A stretch of DNA of 56,295 nucleotides from a virus (taxonomy: Duplodnaviria > Caudoviricetes): the IMG/VR virus record IMGVR_UViG_3300036832_000712, positions 1 through 56,295 of that record; one strand, given 5' to 3'. This document shows positions 21,594 to 33,340 of this stretch, in pieces (positions within the stretch are counted from its first letter, which is position 1; the number at the start of each line of letters is the position of its first letter). A program made the position numbers and the translations under genes. The notes under the pieces are model-generated. The model saw only the letters and a program-made list of their open reading frames with translations. It had not been told where the DNA came from and did not search any database.

Positions 21594-22031
21594 TCAGTTG
21601 ATCCGTATCGCGTCAACCACCCCACGCTTTATGCGCTTAAGCAAAGATGACGGGTCGGTACCCATATGTTCGGCCCACTCACTTAGACATTTACGTCGGC
21701 CTTTGATTTCGTAAATGACGTTCTGCCGTGTGTTGCGTGCTTGCTGAAGTGGAGTCACCCAACGACAGTTGGATGGGAAATACCCACGATCATTGTCGCG
21801 CCGATCGATACACATACCGGCCGGCGCTTCACCCATGTCGGCAAGGAAATTGGCAAACAAGTCCCATCGTTTGCAAACTTTTATTCCTCGCGCTCCATAC
21901 TTACGCCACCACGCGGCATTGGTAGTCGATGCACACCGAGCACGCATCCCTTTCCAAATGCGATACGTCCGTGTACCGCAACCACCGTGTCGATAGTTAG
22001 GATTGCGTTTTCCAGGGTAGGTCCTAGGCAT
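21594..22031 (-). CDS. HNH homing endonuclease
   Basis: YRIWKGMRARC, YGARGIKVCKRW, FLADMG and IDRRDNDRGYFPSNCRW motifs. Confidence 0.9.
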   Translation of the reverse strand: MPRTYPGKRNPNYRHGGCGTRTYRIWKGMRARCASTTNAAWWRKYGARGIKVCKRWDLFANFLADMGEAPAGMCIDRRDNDRGYFPSNCRWVTPLQQARNTRQNVIYEIKGRRKCLSEWAEHMGTDPSSLLKRIKRGVVDAIRIN

Positions 22032-23178
22032 CGACAGTGATCCTTACAACTCCAGCCCAATCGGGACACGTCGCGTCAGTCGTGCACCCGATGATGAGAG
22101 GGTAGGGTGTAGGGCTTTCAGGCCAGGGTGTATAAGCATCAGTCAGAAGCAGCACGACCTCAGGACTGTACTGCTCCGCCACATACTGCAGCGGCTTCCG
22201 CATGTCGGTGCCACCACCTCCTTTAGGGTGCAGAATCACCTCGTTGCCGTCCTCGAACACGTCGACGTTCGAGCACTCGGCATCGTCGGCCCAGATCACG
22301 CGCACGGTCATCGGCTTGATGACGGTGACGATGTGGTTCACCGCAACAGCTATCCTTTCGAATATCTCCTTGGTGAACATCGAGCCAGACGAATCAGCCA
22401 CGATGGTCAGCTCGTCCATGCCGTTGCTCCTGCGACTCGGCAAATAGATATTGCTGTACCGGCGATTGCGCCTGTTCCAGCTTTCGTCTTGTGCAAGACA
22501 GGCAGTCATGTAGTCGATCAGTACCTGCTCCCATGGCACCGGGTCCTCGTAGGTCGCGCCGACGATGGCCGCCAGCTCGCCCGGCATGACGCCATGCTGG
22601 CGGGCTATGGCGCTCGCCCGGGCCAGGGTCTTGTTGATGTGGTGCTCGATCGCCGCCGCCTGCTCGGGCGTGGCCGCCGGGACCGGCCGCAGGTCGCCGC
22701 CCAGGCCGCCCTGCCCAGGACCCTGGCCCTGCCCCTGCCCTTGTCCAGGCTGCCCCTGCTTCCCGCCCTGCTGCTCCAGCAGGGGGTAGATTTGCTCCGC
22801 GGTCATGCCGCGGTACTTGGGATCGATGAGCGCATACTGCCAGATTTTGAACTTGAGATCGTACAGCATGATGTTGATGGCGTAGTCGCAAGCCTTGTTC
22901 CAGCGCTCATGATCGCGAGAACCACGCCGTAAACCATGCTTGAGCAGTATGTGCATAAGTTCGTGGATAACTACGAACTTGGCGGTCGGGATGTCCAGCC
23001 CCTCGATGAAGGCCGGGTTGTAGCCGATGACCGTCATGTCGGTCCACGCTGTCGCGCAGGTCGGGTCCTCGACGAACGGAGTCTGCAGCAGGGCTGCTGC
23101 AAAGAACATAAGTTCTTTTACTTTTACGAGACTCGCTCTCGCAGTTTCCATAACAGAGAGTTGCTGTTGTCTTCTCAT
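22024..23178 (-). CDS. Metallopeptidase + vWA domain protein (DUF2201-like)
   Basis: HELMH zincin motif, WNKACDYAIN, MIDAS DSSGS, GGGGTD and LTD motifs. Confidence 0.88.
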   Translation of the reverse strand: MRRQQQLSVMETARASLVKVKELMFFAAALLQTPFVEDPTCATAWTDMTVIGYNPAFIEGLDIPTAKFVVIHELMHILLKHGLRRGSRDHERWNKACDYAINIMLYDLKFKIWQYALIDPKYRGMTAEQIYPLLEQQGGKQGQPGQGQGQGQGPGQGGLGGDLRPVPAATPEQAAAIEHHINKTLARASAIARQHGVMPGELAAIVGATYEDPVPWEQVLIDYMTACLAQDESWNRRNRRYSNIYLPSRRSNGMDELTIVADSSGSMFTKEIFERIAVAVNHIVTVIKPMTVRVIWADDAECSNVDVFEDGNEVILHPKGGGGTDMRKPLQYVAEQYSPEVVLLLTDAYTPWPESPTPYPLIIGCTTDATCPDWAGVVRITVDA

Positions 23179-24925: not shown

Positions 24926-24955
24926 GTTCAGTAACTCCTTTCAGGTTGGGGAATG

Positions 24956-24974
24956 GTGTTACACAATGTAACAC
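24956..24974. promoter_or_regulatory. 19-bp palindrome copy 6
   Basis: GTGTTACA-CAA-TGTAACAC, 8 nt past the stop at 24983. Confidence 0.85.
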
Positions 24975-24982
24975 CACCTGGT

Positions 24983-26065
24983 TCAGTTCGAGGTATAGAC
25001 CTCGCGGTACTTCTTCACGTAGTCCATGTACGCATCGGCATCAAAGAGAGTGGCGTCCCGCGCGGTGGCGAGCTGCCACGCCATGACGACGAACTCCGCG
25101 GTGAACCGCTTGAGGTACATGTGCAGCTTGTCCACGTTGCCGAGCGTCATCTTCTCGGACACGTGCATGGCGGTCGCGTACTTGATCGAGAGTTCTTCGG
25201 GCACCGGGTACTTGTCGGGCGCCGCGAGAATCTTCTCGATATTGGGGAGGCTCTGCCAGACGTCAACGTGAGCCAGGAACTGCACTGCCGGCCCTTCACC
25301 GATAGCGCCGATCATGGCGGCCTCCTTGATCTCCGGCGTAAGGCGCTTGTCCTGCCACAGCTCGGCCGCGGTGAACCAAGTCCTTGGCGTGGCCACGATG
25401 GCCTGGGTCTTCTTCGGGTCGTAGGTGTTCACCAAGTCCGCGCAGAAATTCCAGAACGAGAGAAACACTTTGGGCACGCCTTGACTCTGCGCATAGATGC
25501 AGAAATCGTCTAGCGAATTGATCGCCTCGACGTGGATCAGCCGGTTGTTCAACGGCATGGGTAGTTTCTTGGCTAATGCCTGATCGTCTAGGAGATTGCC
25601 GGCCAAGAGCATGCGCACGTTGGGCTTCAAGACGTGCTCACCGATGCAGCGATTCAGCACAAGCTGCTGCATCACCGCAAAGACATCGTTCTTCGCATCA
25701 GGCGCTTCGTCGAAGAAAACAACGATGAGCTTGTCATCTGGAAAACTATCATTCCCGATGAACGGCATGGTACCTGGCGGATACCAGACCGTCGTTCCTG
25801 TCTTTTTGTCGGCCTGAGGGGTACCGCGCATATCGACGGAGTCGTACTGAGAGAGCCTGATGTCGATCAGGAGCGTGCCCGTGTAGGGGCAGTCTTTCCC
25901 GAGCAGCGCCTTGAGCGCCTCGGGGCTGTCGAGCTCGTCAACGGCCTGCTCGACACCTTGACTCTTGCCGATACCAAACCGGCCCCTGACGAGGATCGGC
26001 TTGTCGAGACGCACCACTATCTCTTTAACGGTGGTCTTGAGTTGAGAGATAGAAAGCTTCTTCAT
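24983..26065 (-). CDS. MoxR-like AAA+ ATPase
   Basis: Walker A GRFGIGKS, IDIRLSQ, Walker B FFDE, AGN, LNNRLIH and ATPRTW motifs. Confidence 0.85.
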   Translation of the reverse strand: MKKLSISQLKTTVKEIVVRLDKPILVRGRFGIGKSQGVEQAVDELDSPEALKALLGKDCPYTGTLLIDIRLSQYDSVDMRGTPQADKKTGTTVWYPPGTMPFIGNDSFPDDKLIVVFFDEAPDAKNDVFAVMQQLVLNRCIGEHVLKPNVRMLLAGNLLDDQALAKKLPMPLNNRLIHVEAINSLDDFCIYAQSQGVPKVFLSFWNFCADLVNTYDPKKTQAIVATPRTWFTAAELWQDKRLTPEIKEAAMIGAIGEGPAVQFLAHVDVWQSLPNIEKILAAPDKYPVPEELSIKYATAMHVSEKMTLGNVDKLHMYLKRFTAEFVVMAWQLATARDATLFDADAYMDYVKKYREVYTSN

Positions 26066-26092
26066 GGTAGTCAGCCTTTCTTTCAGTGAATG

Positions 26093-26111
26093 GTGTTACA
26101 CTATGTAACAC
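26093..26111. promoter_or_regulatory. 19-bp palindrome copy 7
   Basis: GTGTTACA-CTA-TGTAACAC, 8 nt past the stop at 26120. Confidence 0.85.
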
Positions 26112-26119
26112 CTTGTTGG

Positions 26120-26797: not shown

Positions 26798-26835
26798 TTG
26801 GTTGGTCTCCTTTCAGTGATTGGTTGAGTGAGTTG

Positions 26836-26854
26836 GTGTTACATCATGTAACAC
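26836..26854. promoter_or_regulatory. 19-bp palindrome copy 8 (in the leader downstream of the promoter)
   Basis: GTGTTACA-TCA-TGTAACAC, about 40 bp downstream of the -10 box at 26893. Confidence 0.85.
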
Positions 26855-26892
26855 CTTTTCGGTGGCGGATATCTGATCCACCACCAACAAAC

Positions 26893-26921
26893 ATCATAGC
26901 ACAAAACTTGTTGTTTGTCAA
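26893..26921 (-). promoter_or_regulatory. Near-consensus sigma70 promoter
   Basis: TTGACA-N17-TATGAT on the minus strand, with an A-rich upstream tract. Confidence 0.8.
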
Positions 26922-26951: not shown

Positions 26952-27140
26952 CTACCCCTCGTCAGACGGAGGTTTCGCCTGATCGAGCTCGTTCACCGCC
27001 TGCTGCAGGTCCAGCACCACGTGCAACAACAACTCGATGGCGTCGGCCTGCCAGCGGGTGTAGCTGACCATCTGGTTGGCGCTCGTGTTGTGCGCGTCCA
27101 GGTCCTGCTTGCGCAGCAGCATCTGCTGGATCGAGATCAT
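26952..27140 (-). CDS. Small coiled-coil hypothetical protein
   Basis: MISIQQMLLRK...; GGAG RBS. Confidence 0.5.
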   Translation of the reverse strand: MISIQQMLLRKQDLDAHNTSANQMVSYTRWQADAIELLLHVVLDLQQAVNELDQAKPPSDEG

Positions 27141-27244
27141 TTGATTCTCCAGCTCATGAAGGCGTGCACGGCGACCGCTATGATCCAGATCATCACGCAC
27201 ATGAGCAGGACGGCCGCCAGCACGCTGATGATGTATCCGGTCAT
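27137..27244 (-). CDS. Single-TM peptide (35 aa)
   Basis: MTGYIISVLAAVLLMCVMIWIIAVAVHAFMSWRIK; GAGG RBS and ATGA overlap. Confidence 0.45.
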   Translation of the reverse strand: MTGYIISVLAAVLLMCVMIWIIAVAVHAFMSWRIK

Positions 27245-27256
27245 GGCAGTGACGCC

Positions 27257-27433
27257 TCAGATGAACTCTTTCTGTTCCGCGAGCCATTCCGGCATCGTGA
27301 AGGTGCCGTCCTCGTTGTTCTCGACCTGGGACTTGGGCACCCATGCCGTGCGGGTGCCGTCGAACAGCAAATAAGCGTTATCTGTCTCGTGGCGAATCTC
27401 GGCGGCGATCTCTATCAACGGGCTGTCGCTCAC
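27257..27433 (-). CDS. Small phage protein (58 aa)
   Basis: GTG start; HETDNAYL...WVPKSQ...MPEWLAEQK pattern. Confidence 0.6.
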   Translation of the reverse strand: MSDSPLIEIAAEIRHETDNAYLLFDGTRTAWVPKSQVENNEDGTFTMPEWLAEQKEFI

Positions 27434-27651
27434 AGTGTAACATCCACCTGCTTGGCGCCGGCATGGCGTAGGATCAGCCGGGCTAGCTCGATCGCCTGGT
27501 GATCCGGCAGCGCGAACCACGAGACGTCCTTGCCGAAGTTCACGTGCACGTTGCCTCTATTGTCGTGAGTCACGCCGATCCGCAGTTCGCCCTCGTCGTG
27601 CGGCCCGAAAGAACCGTGCGGGAACTTGCCGGTGGCGCCTAGCTTGTTCAT
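27430..27651 (-). CDS. Small phage protein (73 aa)
   Basis: MNKLGATGKFPHG...DEGELRIG...FGKDVSW; AGGAG RBS. Confidence 0.65.
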   Translation of the reverse strand: MNKLGATGKFPHGSFGPHDEGELRIGVTHDNRGNVHVNFGKDVSWFALPDHQAIELARLILRHAGAKQVDVTL

Positions 27652-27884
27652 CGTAACTCCTGCGAGCGCGCGTACGGAGCGCGCATTAGCTGCGGGGCTT
27701 TTTTCTGGATGATCTGGTGCACGCGCTGGAACGATACGCCGAAGCGATCGGCGCACGCGCGCAATGAATGCCCATCGGCGTAATAGGCGATGACCTGCGC
27801 CGGCTGGTGGTGGCGGCTGCGCAGGCTGCCGCACTTGCGCAGATAGTCAGTCAGCATCTGCTTTGACCGTTTGCGTGCACGCAT
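27648..27884 (-). CDS. Small HTH DNA-binding protein
   Basis: SLRACADRFGVSFQRVHQII helix-turn-helix. Confidence 0.6.
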   Translation of the reverse strand: MRARKRSKQMLTDYLRKCGSLRSRHHQPAQVIAYYADGHSLRACADRFGVSFQRVHQIIQKKAPQLMRAPYARSQELR

Positions 27885-28105
27885 CAGTTAGCCAGTTCCC
27901 AATCGGTCGCCAGCAGGTCGGTCTGCGAGCACAGCCACGGCACCAGATCACCTTGCGCAGTGAACATATAAACGTAAGGCAGCGTCATCTTGGAGTGCTC
28001 ATCAGGGGATTGTAGCTCCAAGTACATGTACTTGCCGTTCCAGCCCGAGCGGCGTACACGTTTGCCGTTTTGTATTGATTTGACCGCCCAGCCGATGCTG
28101 TTCAT
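27884..28105 (-). CDS. tad2: DUF2829 / Tad2-like anti-defence sponge protein
   Basis: GKRVRRSGWNGKYMYL...LPYVYM...VPWLCSQTDLLATDW is the DUF2829 signature; GGAG RBS. Confidence 0.8.
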   Translation of the reverse strand: MNSIGWAVKSIQNGKRVRRSGWNGKYMYLELQSPDEHSKMTLPYVYMFTAQGDLVPWLCSQTDLLATDWELAN

Positions 28106-28323
28106 GCTGTAACTCCCTTCACGGCCCACATGGCCGCGTCCTCGAAATGCGTCTGGGCAAGGGAAAACAGGCGGATCGCCTCGCCGCTGGTGGTCTGCTT
28201 CTTGAAGTCCTCGCATAGGTCGATCAGATCAGCGGCGCGCATCTTGATGTTCTCGACGTCTTGATTGGCGCTCGGATTGAACGAAAGCCGCACGCGGGAT
28301 TGTCCTAACGTCTGCTCGGTCAT
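28102..28323 (-). CDS. Acb2/Tad1-like helical-hairpin protein
   Basis: RLFSLAQTHFEDAAMWAVKG resembles the R..SLA.T..E.A.MW motif of Tad1/Acb2 sponges; translationally coupled to the Tad2-like gene. Confidence 0.55.
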   Translation of the reverse strand: MTEQTLGQSRVRLSFNPSANQDVENIKMRAADLIDLCEDFKKQTTSGEAIRLFSLAQTHFEDAAMWAVKGVTA

Positions 28324-28417: not shown

Positions 28418-28993
28418 TTACACCTGACGAGCGTTCTTCTCTTGGCGTTTGCGACGACTCAGCCATCCCATCAGCCCGAGACCGCCAGCGAACAGTGGCA
28501 GGGCAGCGGGGAGCGGCGTGGTCTCCAGCTGGAAGTTGGACTGGCCGATCGGGCCATTGACCCCGGATGCCTGGAGCTCGAAGAAGTAGTCCACCCCGGC
28601 CATCAGGGACACCACGTCGGTGTTGTTGTTGGCGGCGAAGTTGCCGGCAACCACCGTGCCGTTGACAGTATCCCGGGTGATCCTGAAGATTTCAGCGACG
28701 AAGCTCGGCAGATCGTTCGCCGGGTTGTTGAGCACGTCGACGTTGACCAGGGTGCCGTTGGCGCCGGATACAGTGAACTCGACGAAGTCGCTGAGGAACG
28801 ACGGCGCCGTGGTCGACTGCAGCGTGCCGGCAAGCTCGGTCGGGCTGACCGCCCCGACCGTTCCCTGCGACGGCGCAGGGCCAGTAAATGACAGCCCGTT
28901 CTGGACCAGATTGATGGTGGCGGCGTTAGCGGCGGTGACCATTAATCCCAGAGTCAGGGCAGCGCCGGCAGCGAGAAGGCTTCTCATAGTCAT
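28418..28993 (-). CDS. Secreted protein with VPLPA-CTERM (PEP-CTERM-type) sorting signal
   Basis: Signal peptide ending in ANA; C-terminal TPLPAALPLFAGGLGLMGWLSRRKR (motif, TM helix, basic tail). Confidence 0.85.
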   Translation of the reverse strand: MTMRSLLAAGAALTLGLMVTAANAATINLVQNGLSFTGPAPSQGTVGAVSPTELAGTLQSTTAPSFLSDFVEFTVSGANGTLVNVDVLNNPANDLPSFVAEIFRITRDTVNGTVVAGNFAANNNTDVVSLMAGVDYFFELQASGVNGPIGQSNFQLETTPLPAALPLFAGGLGLMGWLSRRKRQEKNARQV

Positions 28994-29430
28994 AGAGTAT
29001 CCTTTCCGTTGGGTTCAAACTTCTTTTGGAACTCAGCGCATACCGCCCTGATCTCCTTCGAGACCTGGGCGGTGTGCTCGATGTTGGCATAGGCCAGCCT
29101 GCCTTTCTCGCGGATGGCGCTGGCGGCCTCGGCCAAAAGCTTCATGTCCTTGTCGCACTCATTGAGCGAAGTTTCCAGAGCCAGGATGCGCTCCTTGACC
29201 GCCTCACCCATGGCCTCGACGTTCTTGGCTGCCTGCTCGTACTGACTCTGCACAGCCTTGGCAGACAGCCGTCCGATGTCGGCGTCCCGCGCCGCGGGAA
29301 TCTCCGGCAGCGGCTTCGGCTTGGGAGCGAAGTCAGATAGTTGTCCCACGTCGCCGTCGTTGAGGTCGATGCGATTGCCGCGCTCGCCATGCCGTACGAT
29401 GTTGGTCATTTTTCGTTTGCTCCTTTTCAA
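28990..29430 (-). CDS. Coiled-coil hypothetical protein
   Basis: 146 aa, coupled to both neighbours. Confidence 0.55.
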   Translation of the reverse strand: MKRSKRKMTNIVRHGERGNRIDLNDGDVGQLSDFAPKPKPLPEIPAARDADIGRLSAKAVQSQYEQAAKNVEAMGEAVKERILALETSLNECDKDMKLLAEAASAIREKGRLAYANIEHTAQVSKEIRAVCAEFQKKFEPNGKDTL

Positions 29431-29726
29431 TCCTGCTCGTTGCTGCTGGTATCGTAGATGCGCAAGCCCGGGTGCTGGCGGAACATCAGCTCGTTGATGT
29501 AGGGCGACAGGGTGTTGGTGAATACGGCGCCGAGCGCGCAGCCGGCGTGCTCGCGCAGATAGTTGTTGCGCCAGCGCCAGTTCTCGTACTTGATCTTGTG
29601 GATGAGGAACATCGCCGCCTGATAGAACAGCTTGGCCAGATGATCGGCGCGGCTGGCGCTGCAGCCGAGCCGCGACTCAAGATGACGATAAATGCCGGCA
29701 GTCGTCATCGTACGCGGATTATGCAT
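29427..29726 (-). CDS. Hypothetical protein
   Basis: 99 aa, coupled to neighbours. Confidence 0.5.
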   Translation of the reverse strand: MHNPRTMTTAGIYRHLESRLGCSASRADHLAKLFYQAAMFLIHKIKYENWRWRNNYLREHAGCALGAVFTNTLSPYINELMFRQHPGLRIYDTSSNEQD

Positions 29727-30694
29727 CAGCGCACGCTCACGCTAGCCTTGGCTTTGCCACGCATTGCCCGTTCCCGGTTCGCTGCTCTGACTTTTTCTCG
29801 CGCCGCCATCAGTTCCTCGTAGGTCCTGGGGATGTCGCGTCTGAACGCAGTCGGGCTCTCCTTCTCGTCGAGCACGCGCTTTTCAAGCTCGGTGAACAGC
29901 CGAAAGGCTTCCTCGTAGCGGCGCAGCAGGCGTGGCCGCTCGTCCTCGGTCGAAGCGAGCAGGCCAATGAGCCGGTCGGGATGCAGGCAGGCAAGTATCT
30001 TCTTGTAGGTGACGCCATCCATTACGCCCTTGCGGTTCGCGATCGAGCGTTCGAGGTCCTTCAATTGTTGTAGGTATGAAGGCAGGCTCACGTCATTGAG
30101 GCGGCGGCGGCACTCCAGCATCACCCGCTCTTCGAAGCCGCCCTCCAGCTTGCGCTGCTCTTGCCGCTTCCAGGCATCGACCTTCTGCTGCGCCGTCATC
30201 GACAAGTCGGCACGGGCAACCTGCGGCTCGCGTCGGATATTTTCTTCTGCGACCGCCACCTTGACTGGCTGCACCGATTTAAGGCCGACCTCGTTTTTTG
30301 CTTGTTCGTAGGTCATGCCTCGATCGAGCACGAGCGTCGCAGCGGCTTGTGCCTTCTGCGGTTCGGTCGTGCGGCGCGCCGGCTGCGGCCCACTACGACG
30401 CTGCCCGCTGCCCTTGGGGCGGCCGGCGCTTTTCTTGCGGCCGAGCGTGTCCTTGCCGCGGCCTTTGACATTAACGACAGTCGTTAATGTCTCGCAGTCG
30501 TTACTGATCGTGTCCTGGCTCACGCCAAGCTGCCTGGCAATAGCTTGCTGGCTGTAATCCTGCTTGCGCAGCTGCTCGACTATCGGCCGGCGTCTAGCCG
30601 GTGTTTTCTGGTCATCAGGCAAGCTGTGCCACGATGCCAGCAGGCAATTGTCGGGGCAGGTCCGATCACCACCCATAGGGCATACGCATTTCAT
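29726..30694 (-). CDS. HTH DNA-binding protein with a C-terminal HPD (J-domain-like) segment
   Basis: YSQQAIARQLGVSQDTISND helix-turn-helix; AT-hook-like GRPKG; YKKILACLHPDR...YEEAFRLF. Confidence 0.6.
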   Translation of the reverse strand: MKCVCPMGGDRTCPDNCLLASWHSLPDDQKTPARRRPIVEQLRKQDYSQQAIARQLGVSQDTISNDCETLTTVVNVKGRGKDTLGRKKSAGRPKGSGQRRSGPQPARRTTEPQKAQAAATLVLDRGMTYEQAKNEVGLKSVQPVKVAVAEENIRREPQVARADLSMTAQQKVDAWKRQEQRKLEGGFEERVMLECRRRLNDVSLPSYLQQLKDLERSIANRKGVMDGVTYKKILACLHPDRLIGLLASTEDERPRLLRRYEEAFRLFTELEKRVLDEKESPTAFRRDIPRTYEELMAAREKVRAANRERAMRGKAKASVSVR

Positions 30695-32617: not shown

Positions 32618-33256
32618 TTAGGCTAGAGCTTTGCGGCGGCGCGTGAGCCAGCCCATGAGGCCCAGTCCGCCGAACATCAGCGGCAGCGATGCCGGCAGCG
32701 GCGTGGCCACCAGCGGTCCGGCCACGTCGATGCGGTAGTGCTCGTAGTCGGTGATCTCGCCAGTGGCATCGACCAGCGTCAAGAGGTTCATGGTCTCGCC
32801 GTTGATAGCGGTGAGGGTGAAGCCTGATTGCGCGTTGGCGGTGATCTGACCGAGGTCGATGTTGAAAGTGCCATCGGTGGCCTGCACGATGGCGTGCACG
32901 TCGCCACTTCCCTTCAAGCTGAACACCTGCGTCGAGGTGGTCAGCACCTGGGTGTCGGAGGTGTTGGAAAACACCTCGATCTGAAGATCAGATGTGTTGG
33001 AGATTTTTATGTCGTTGCCATTGGCGGCGCCGGCGAACAGTGAATTGCCGGAGAGGTCACTGAAGTTCACCACGCCAGTGTGCTGGCCATTGAACTGGCC
33101 GATAGCGAGGCTGCCGGCGAAGCTCTCGAAGGTGACATTGTCGCCGGTGCCCGAGAGCATGGGGCTCATGACGACGTCGGCATGCGCTGTTACGAGCGCC
33201 ACCGGCGCGAGCGCAAAAGCGCAGGCGAGCGTGAGCGCGAGCAGGGTCTTACGCAT
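32618..33256 (-). CDS. Second secreted protein with VPLPA-CTERM sorting signal
   Basis: Signal peptide ending in AHA; C-terminal TPLPASLPLMFGGLGLMGWLTRRRK. Confidence 0.85.
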   Translation of the reverse strand: MRKTLLALTLACAFALAPVALVTAHADVVMSPMLSGTGDNVTFESFAGSLAIGQFNGQHTGVVNFSDLSGNSLFAGAANGNDIKISNTSDLQIEVFSNTSDTQVLTTSTQVFSLKGSGDVHAIVQATDGTFNIDLGQITANAQSGFTLTAINGETMNLLTLVDATGEITDYEHYRIDVAGPLVATPLPASLPLMFGGLGLMGWLTRRRKALA

Positions 33257-33301: not shown

Positions 33302-33313
33302 TCGTTGATCAAG

Positions 33314-33332
33314 GTGTTACATGATGTAACAC
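33314..33332. promoter_or_regulatory. 19-bp palindrome copy 9
   Basis: GTGTTACA-TGA-TGTAACAC, 8 nt past the stop at 33341. Confidence 0.85.
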
Positions 33333-33340
33333 CTGCCTGC

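Follow-up and report, generated by a model that had tools for sequence, protein, structure and literature searches.

The linear IMG/VR virus record IMGVR_UViG_3300036832_000712 (56,295 bases, about 89% complete by CheckV; its whole length is the window referred to below) carries on its minus strand a block of seven small open reading frames (ORFs), P0001 to P0007, which occupy 28323..26952. We find it quite probable that the first two, P0001 and P0002, encode two different oligomeric sponges directed against the signals of the cyclic oligonucleotide-based antiphage signalling system (CBASS) and of Thoeris, with the five downstream genes as co-expressed passengers. Family membership, conserved contact residues, a predicted hairpin fold and recurrent adjacency could be read directly, and from these we infer the oligomeric states, the ligands and the timing of expression. 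The ORFs named in a preliminary description of this DNA all exist on the minus strand, with the coordinates used here.

P0001 (28102..28323, minus strand, 73 residues) is the gene that contains SLAQTHFEDAAMWAVK, and its sequence supports membership of the Acb2-type family. The protein matches PF24729, the Acb2/Tad1 hairpin, with 44.5 bits (cut-off 27, E 1.8e-11), residues 16-72 lying on positions 3-57 of the 58 in the model. The region gave 43.8 bits in a six-frame search, and the domain is borne by all 55 homologues of P0001 found among 5.8 billion proteins. The AlphaFold2 model, built with 46 homologues, reaches a predicted local distance difference test score (pLDDT) of 96.3 and has a short N-terminal segment followed by helices 21-43 and 47-72 in a hairpin. 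Two long antiparallel helices and an ending of the (A)MWAVK type are also features of the known Acb2 proteins (PaMx33 Acb2; T4 Vs.4, 7UQ2), while P0001 with its 73 residues is shorter than the 89-residue T4 Vs.4 chain. When the model was aligned by VIA-align, T4 Vs.4 with bound cyclic GMP-AMP (cGAMP; 7uq2_A) gave Z 7.0 and a root mean square deviation of 2.5 over 59 residues. Vs.4 has the top identity in that list (20%), yet it is tied with many unrelated helical hairpins.

The ligand-contacting positions were located by alignment. An Arg/Thr pair seven residues apart, as in cyclic-trinucleotide phosphate binding by Acb2, is found in P0001 as R51/T58 and aligns to Vs.4 D62/T69 and CbTad1 R91/T98 in chain numbering, the published numbers being D61/T68 and R90/T97. 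In the published work R67/T74 of PaMx33 Acb2 bind the phosphates of cyclic triadenylate (cA3), and T4 Acb2 D61/T68 and CbTad1 R90/T97 are their counterparts. Among the 46 homologues of P0001, R51 is invariant and T58 is at least 90% conserved. The N-terminus, with an invariant G..RV...FNP....V...K segment (RVR.SFNPS in P0001), is peculiar to the P0001 subfamily. We compared the motifs of P0001 and P0002 by eye with the tested homologues of Hadary et al. 2025 (PMC12393519, Table S2), taking the table entry 'n, N/A, y' to mean, in our interpretation, that the plate transformation had failed and the plaque test then came out positive. Acb2 homologue no. 42 has the TLG.SRVR..FNPSA and AAMWAVK motifs as in P0001 and was confirmed by plaque assay against a single system, the CBASS of E. 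albertii that signals by 3'3'-cGAMP; of the five tested Acb2 rows that bear FNPS, four inhibited this cGAMP CBASS (PMC12393519).

The preliminary description had called this gene Acb2/Tad1-like, of which only the Acb2 half holds. P0001 shares with Tad1 (7UAV/7UAW) the C-terminal helical hairpin, the R..A.TH.E.A.MW motif and the trinucleotide R/T pair, but it consists of the hairpin only, and the N-terminal antiparallel beta-sheet domain of Tad1 is missing. The positions aligned to CbTad1 F82/N92 hold other, unconserved residues, and R109/R113, which belong to the CbTad1 pocket for glycocyclic ADP-ribose (gcADPR), fall beyond the aligned stretch. As neither the beta domain nor the pocket residues are kept, we ruled out Tad1 as an identity for P0001.

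P0002 (27884..28105, minus strand, 73 residues) overlaps P0001 by ATGA, as was read earlier, and the DUF2829 signature then seen in it is confirmed by PF11195 with 84.5 bits (cut-off 25, E 7.5e-24; positions 2-72 of the 73 in the model). Among solved structures, seven different Tad2/AcrIIA7 sequences are matched at E<=3.4e-8, the best being SptTad2 (8wjd, E 6.5e-15), SPO1 Tad2 (8sme, 3.9e-10) and HgmTad2 (8kbi, 9.3e-10). For HgmTad2, the published description lists W21, N22, G23, W87, L88, S90, T92 and D93 as polar gcADPR contacts (10.1101/2023.11.15.567273). A phmmer alignment to 8kbi_A, the chain numbering of which runs one higher than that of the paper, places W22/N23/G24 and W57/L58/S60/T62/D63 of P0002 on these contacts, all eight identical. 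Four further contacts are partly retained (M76 and V84 kept, A78 replaced by T and T82 by D), two of the three hydrophobic ones being kept. The full-length domain match, the GWNGK loop and the W-L-x-S-Q-T-D contact motif are all as in the known Tad2 proteins (8SME, 8KBI, 8WJD and MoTad2 9EIB). Hence the Tad2-like assignment, made at first from the letters alone, is now carried by Pfam, by sequence matches in the PDB, by the conserved ligand contacts and by tested homologues that share its motifs.

In contrast to P0002, the solved Tad2/AcrIIA7 chains that it matches are all longer (88-158 residues). The beta2-beta5 linker of P0002 comprises about 10 residues (33-43), as against 24 in SPO1 Tad2 and 41 in HgmTad2 (residues 32-72). 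According to the HgmTad2 report, it is through the beta2-beta5 insertion that cyclic dinucleotides are bound (10.1101/2023.11.15.567273); as P0002 lacks the insertion, a cyclic-dinucleotide pocket built from it, as in HgmTad2, is impossible. The insertion is a trait of some Tad2 members and not of the family, and the alignments support P0002 as a Tad2 reduced to its core. The PDEHSKMT.PY motif of P0002 also occurs in Tad2_71, and as PDENSKMTAPY in Tad2_79 (by eye; PMC12393519). These two are the type IV Thoeris inhibitors in Hadary et al. and blocked type I as well (PMC12393519), and Tad2_71 binds N7-cADPR and 3'cADPR (isomers of cyclic ADP-ribose) in vitro. Relatives of P0002 in cultured phages have 56-67% identity and come from phages of Acinetobacter and Mycobacterium.

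Further, we wanted to know how often the two families stand together. From the 305 relatives of P0002 in IMG/VR we took the nearest 80 loci, and likewise the nearest 80 from more than 521 for P0001. Of the 80 P0002-relative loci, 29 by profile and 30 by tblastn have an Acb2-like gene no more than 3 kb away, always on the same strand; 27 of the 29 directly adjoin the P0002-type gene, in either order, and the Acb2-like partners fall into 20 clusters at 90% identity. Short Tad2 genes are often accompanied by an Acb2-like gene, and the reverse is not so. A conserved module of four families (Acb2, Tad2, P0004 and P0005) was considered as well and rejected on low reciprocal counts: in the 80 Acb2-like loci we found Tad2 in 2, the P0004 family in 5 and the P0005 family in 3, and the 80 P0005-family loci held neither Tad2 nor the P0004 family.

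Two cases merit separate mention. One phage lineage (L001, L003) has the short Tad2 gene, with or without an Acb2-like gene, between ORFs of 602-691 and 571-578 residues, which by size and position look like terminase and portal genes; this would place the pair in a packaging module and not in an early region. On contig IMGVR_UViG_3300036846_000846 (L081, identical to L235) an Acb2-like gene about 90% identical to P0001 adjoins a P0004-type gene with 68% identity to P0004. This contrast suggests that one of the neighbours has evolved much faster than the other, or that the sponge gene is exchanged among phage backbones.

In the mechanism we propose, P0001 and P0002 would be made early from one coupled message, and would bind the nucleotide alarm signals of abortive-infection systems so that the effectors are never switched on. 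The P0001 hairpin is expected to assemble as a hexamer that sequesters CBASS signals, most likely cyclic trinucleotides in the R51/T58 pocket and probably 3'3'-cGAMP through the N-terminal segment. P0002 would act as a tetramer on the ADP-ribose isomers that the TIR proteins of Thoeris make, most likely 3'cADPR/gcADPR and possibly N7-cADPR. The two sponges would act independently and jointly cover CBASS and Thoeris, while the five downstream genes would be passengers: a weak helix-turn-helix (HTH) protein, a dimeric P0004, an SH3-like P0005, a membrane-like P0006 and an orphan P0007.

The genes of the block are tightly packed. In gene order the junctions are ATGA, TGATG, ATGA, GTGA, a gap of 12 nucleotides (nt) and ATGA, so that five of the six overlap by 1-4 bases, and a purine-rich, Shine-Dalgarno-like stretch stands ahead of every one of the seven starts. 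Overlaps of 1-4 nt also join the four upstream genes (30694..28418) and are hence not special to the block, which is flanked by gaps of 94 nt upstream and 154 nt downstream. The downstream gap holds a sigma-70-type promoter-like site at 26893..26921 (minus strand; TTGACA-17-TATGAT, 11 of 12 matches, TG before the -10 hexamer), which would start the next unit. We looked for a promoter-like site or operator upstream of 28323 and found none; the block may thus be read through from upstream. Coding character was scored as the log-likelihood per codon relative to 13 long genes of the same phage (training mean 0.24). All seven annotated frames are positive (0.08-0.37 per codon), with 0.70-0.94 G+C at third codon positions (GC3), and a competing reading of 130 residues (27344..27141) scores -0.31 per codon. 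PF24729 and PF11195 each occur once in a six-frame search of the entire window.

P0004 (27430..27651, minus strand, 73 residues) has a large number of viral relatives, as yet under no family name, and the modelling gives a homodimer. It has no match in Pfam or PHROG, and a PDB profile search gave nothing better than E 0.49. The protein atlas returned unnamed clusters together with DUF6324 at 0.84, below the threshold for a lead. At E<=0.001 the family has 2125 cluster representatives (of 1.84 billion), 817 of which remain at E<=1e-10, and it has no match among 50,697 cultured-phage records. The monomer model is mediocre (pLDDT 70.9) and without a Foldseek match. Run as four copies on its own 117-row alignment, the protein gave a self-association score of 0.67, against 0.01 for the best control. 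Such a score was attained by 20 of 30 homomeric pairs of known structure and by 1 of 23 single chains, a benchmark which is only rough here, since a custom alignment and four copies were used. At least 75% of the contacts agree between the dimer runs, the partner pLDDT is at least 60, and the symmetric interface runs through residues 33-73. The Gly-rich N-terminus is nearly invariant in the 117 sequences (G5, T7, G8, P11, G13, D19, G21) and disordered in the monomer model. The prediction of oligomer structures called for earlier yielded a homodimer for P0004, and this conserved stretch lies outside the interface.

The P0004 family was then searched for fused domains and for neighbours. Thirty proteins were scanned in Pfam (27 long representatives and 3 short controls) and ten in PHROGs; among the long representatives a HAD-like N-terminal domain (phrog_1238/phrog_23773) occurs in four, and an AAA_33/polynucleotide-kinase-like domain, HTH_11 and FtsK_gamma in one each. 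In P0129, P0134, P0191, P0173 and P0207 the P0004-type domain stands C-terminal to a HAD-like part (DFDGV motif) or a polynucleotide-kinase-like one (AAA_33, phrog_505). HAD-like and polynucleotide-kinase-like domains make up both activities of the T4-type end-healing enzymes. The 150 representative neighbours scanned include Acb2-like genes (2), DNA methylases (6), an AAA_33 kinase and a DSPc phosphatase, and the neighbourhoods are diverse, 218 neighbours falling into 180 clusters. An Acb2-like gene lies just upstream of the P0004 homologue in 9 of 74 loci, seven of the nine being near-identical, so that about three lineages are represented. Five loci of this family, L140 for example, also contain an ORF with a signal-peptide-like start (by eye), similar to that of the 191-residue phage ORF described below.

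P0005 (27257..27433, minus strand, 58 residues, GTG start) is possibly SH3-like and carries a WVPKSQV motif. Its family is well conserved, with 264 homologous clusters, and it matches phrog_8389 at 3.5e-10; the fold signals are weak and of SH3/S1 type (myosin SH3 domains at E 0.14 in the PDB profile search), and the protein atlas gave unnamed viral clusters only. Among 99 representative neighbours scanned we found RecT (4), ERF, YqaJ, PD-(D/E)XK (2), helicases (2), RNase_T (2) and DNA pol A, along with exonuclease genes and AAA_24 (2), one of the two AAA_24 genes standing for 8 loci; altogether 245 neighbours form 179 clusters. The homologue in Pseudomonas phage PAE1 is flanked by the genes for DNA polymerase and dCMP deaminase, and 39 of the 46 cultured-phage matches are in Pseudomonas phages. 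An Acb2-like gene is near the P0005 homologue in 8 of 80 loci, abutting it in three.

Of the other downstream genes, P0003 (27648..27884, minus strand, 78 residues) encodes a small HTH protein and possible regulator. HTH_28 is borderline, with 25.6 bits at a cut-off of 25, and several further HTH families remain below threshold. The small HTH regulator proposed earlier has no close relative in IMG/VR and none near the sponge genes of the 80 Tad2 loci. P0003 was also considered as an Aca-type autoregulator and rejected, there being no promoter or operator upstream of 28323 and no HTH relatives in the 80 Tad2 loci. P0006 (27137..27244, minus strand, 35 residues) is a hydrophobic ORF resembling a single-pass membrane protein; its codon usage is coding-like, but the reverse frame scores similarly, and it had no Pfam or PHROG match and no relatives in the searches made. 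P0007 (26952..27140, minus strand, 62 residues) seems lineage-specific, with a codon score of 0.37, a GC3 of 0.94, no match in Pfam or PHROG and no IMG/VR relative in a scan for close relatives.

Several observations weigh against P0001 and P0002 as sponges of CBASS and Thoeris signals. A Foldseek search of the P0001 hairpin against the PDB gave no match at E<=0.001, with Tad1 7uaw at rank 43. The matches to solved chains are weak: Vs.4 reached E 0.078 with the single sequence and at best 0.0026 with the profile, Tad1 about 0.2, and PaMx33 Acb2 went unmatched by the profile at E<=1. The dinucleotide contacts Y11/K26 of Acb2 cannot be mapped onto P0001 because the N-terminal alignment is unreliable, and the invariant F15/K27 are candidates only. 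In the published account, T4 Acb2 has the Thr without binding cA3, and D61R did not restore binding; the R/T pair alone is hence no guarantee of trinucleotide binding. Acb2 homologue no. 2, with FNPA and a similar N-terminal motif, inhibited none of seven systems (PMC12393519), and Tad2_78, which has a looser version of the P0002 motif, was inactive (PMC12393519). The pairing described above is one-sided: among the 80 loci nearest to P0001, just 2 have a Tad2-like gene. Finally, DUF2829 includes the anti-CRISPR AcrIIA7 (9kzr_A), matched by P0002 at E 3.4e-8. Together with the title of the HgmTad2 PDB entry, 'Inhibitor of Type II CRISPR-Cas system', and with several tested Tad2 homologues that inhibited none of seven signalling systems (PMC12393519), this match could speak for P0002 as an AcrIIA7-like anti-CRISPR, or for some other DUF2829 role, in place of a Thoeris sponge. 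We regard this as very unlikely, as all eight polar gcADPR contacts are kept, the closest tested homologues sharing the motif are Thoeris inhibitors, and HgmTad2/AcrIIA7 is itself a proven gcADPR sponge.

For the remainder of the block we favour unrelated early functions, with P0004 as the one candidate worth testing. The preliminary description had proposed 27430..27651 and 27257..27433 as new defence inhibitors by association. This association is weak: each gene does have Acb2-like neighbours, but those of P0004 come from the few lineages given above and it is otherwise linked with methylases, kinases and phosphatases, while P0005 mostly adjoins RecT, ERF, AAA_24, exonuclease and helicase genes. 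A generic early-gene cassette, into which the two sponge genes came separately as morons and whose five downstream genes are unconnected with defence, P0005 being a replication or recombination accessory and P0004 a partner of kinases or phosphatases acting on nucleotides or nucleic-acid ends, seems to us slightly better supported than not. It would account for the recombination and replication genes beside P0005 homologues, PAE1 included, for the HAD-like and AAA_33/polynucleotide-kinase-like fusions of P0004 and its methylase, kinase and phosphatase neighbours, and for the diversity of both neighbourhoods. It accounts less well for the Acb2-like genes that abut P0004 homologues in L081, L098 and L140-146 and P0005 homologues in L166, L198 and L204, as such abutment is more frequent than one would expect of a family that only a small fraction of viral contigs contain. 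Moreover, P0004 is, like the known sponges, small and modelled as a homo-oligomer, and methylases and end-healing kinases are themselves tools of counter-defence. That P0004 could be a new homodimeric sponge, or another direct inhibitor of nucleotide-based immunity, is an unlikely reading. A protein of 73 residues from no known family would, as modelled, show the general sponge traits of Tal et al. 2025, namely fewer than 100 residues and homo-oligomerisation; its predicted self-association stands far above the control, the near-invariant Gly-rich N-terminus lies outside the interface as a ligand loop might, and Acb2-like genes are beside it in about three lineages. On the other hand, the 30 proteins scanned in Pfam show no fusion to a known sponge domain, and six P0004/P0005 motifs had no match in the seven supplementary files of the structure-guided screen of Tal et al., one of the files lying outside the search. 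The Acb2-like neighbour is limited to the few, mostly near-identical loci counted above, and homodimers are common among small phage proteins. We are equally doubtful of the wider proposal that P0004 founds a large, metagenome-only viral family of homodimeric counter-defence proteins in which the Gly-rich loop binds a phosphorylated ligand, be it an immune nucleotide or a damaged nucleic-acid end, although such a role would explain both the Acb2-like neighbours and the fusions to polynucleotide-kinase-like and HAD-phosphatase-like domains.

Taken as a sponge pair with passengers, the block can be compared with published arrangements. In the anti-signalling hotspot of N4-like phages, sponge genes lie side by side in a variable slot (10.64898/2026.06.04.730250), and Tad2-Acb4 and Tad2-Sequestin fusions have been published (10.1101/2025.07.12.664507). 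In both, several signal sponges come together as they do here; the difference is that here the Acb2-like and Tad2-like genes are separate and coupled. The present phage also has a family A polymerase, and no N4-type markers turned up in the scans made. Neither Acb4 nor Sequestin domains were found in the record by searches that were silent in control genomes too. Because such hotspots and fusions are already published the arrangement is a known theme, in which P0001 and P0002 add new members to sponge families already described. About one in three relatives of the short Tad2 has an Acb2-like partner, in keeping with the stacking or fusion of sponges that is now coming to light. Two features stand out from the routine: a Tad2 that consists of its core alone and shares its motif with the published inhibitors of type IV Thoeris, and the large P0004 family, still unnamed, for which a dimer is predicted and fusions to kinase and phosphatase domains are seen. 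Sponges decide whether a phage grows on CBASS or Thoeris hosts, and hence matter for host-range prediction and phage therapy. With its 73 residues P0002 could reveal the minimum Tad2 fold for TIR-made signals, possibly N7-cADPR, P0001 represents an Acb2 subfamily with an uncharacterised N-terminal pocket, and the P0004 family offers a concrete and abundant candidate for screening.

The phage itself has the gene set of a tailed phage, the PHROG search of 43 long ORFs giving a family A DNA polymerase, primase/helicase, exonucleases, terminase, and portal-type and major head proteins. DNA searches of the block and of the polymerase gene against the 50,697 phage records gave 127 nt of the Tad2 gene in a mycobacteriophage as sole match, and no named relative or host could be assigned. 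A PEP-CTERM-like sorting tail closes two phage ORFs at 28418-28993 and 32618-33256 (both minus strand), with PF07589 at 17.6 bits (below the cut-off of 20.7) and 20.8 bits (at the cut-off), respectively. The 191-residue ORF with such a tail has a signal-peptide-like start as well (by eye). From these tails one might suspect a Gram-negative host that possesses an exosortase system.

A 21-bp palindrome, GGTGTTACATnATGTAACACC, occurs in 12 copies (at most 3 mismatches; 0 expected) between 9803 and 37035, for example at 26835-26855, 26092-26112, 24955-24975 and 33313-33333, and none of the copies is within the sponge block. Most lie directly 3' of a stop codon, about 20-50 nt ahead of the next minus-strand start, and some are within long ORFs. 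The palindrome could serve a phage regulator as its operator, or else form a hairpin with a 9-bp stem in the RNA between cistrons. A few genes downstream of the block we further detect a DUF2201 metallopeptidase/VWA-like protein (PF13203, 145.7 bits) and a phrog_1297 ATPase (22024-23178 and 24983-26065, minus strand), which together resemble a MoxR/VWA-type pair.

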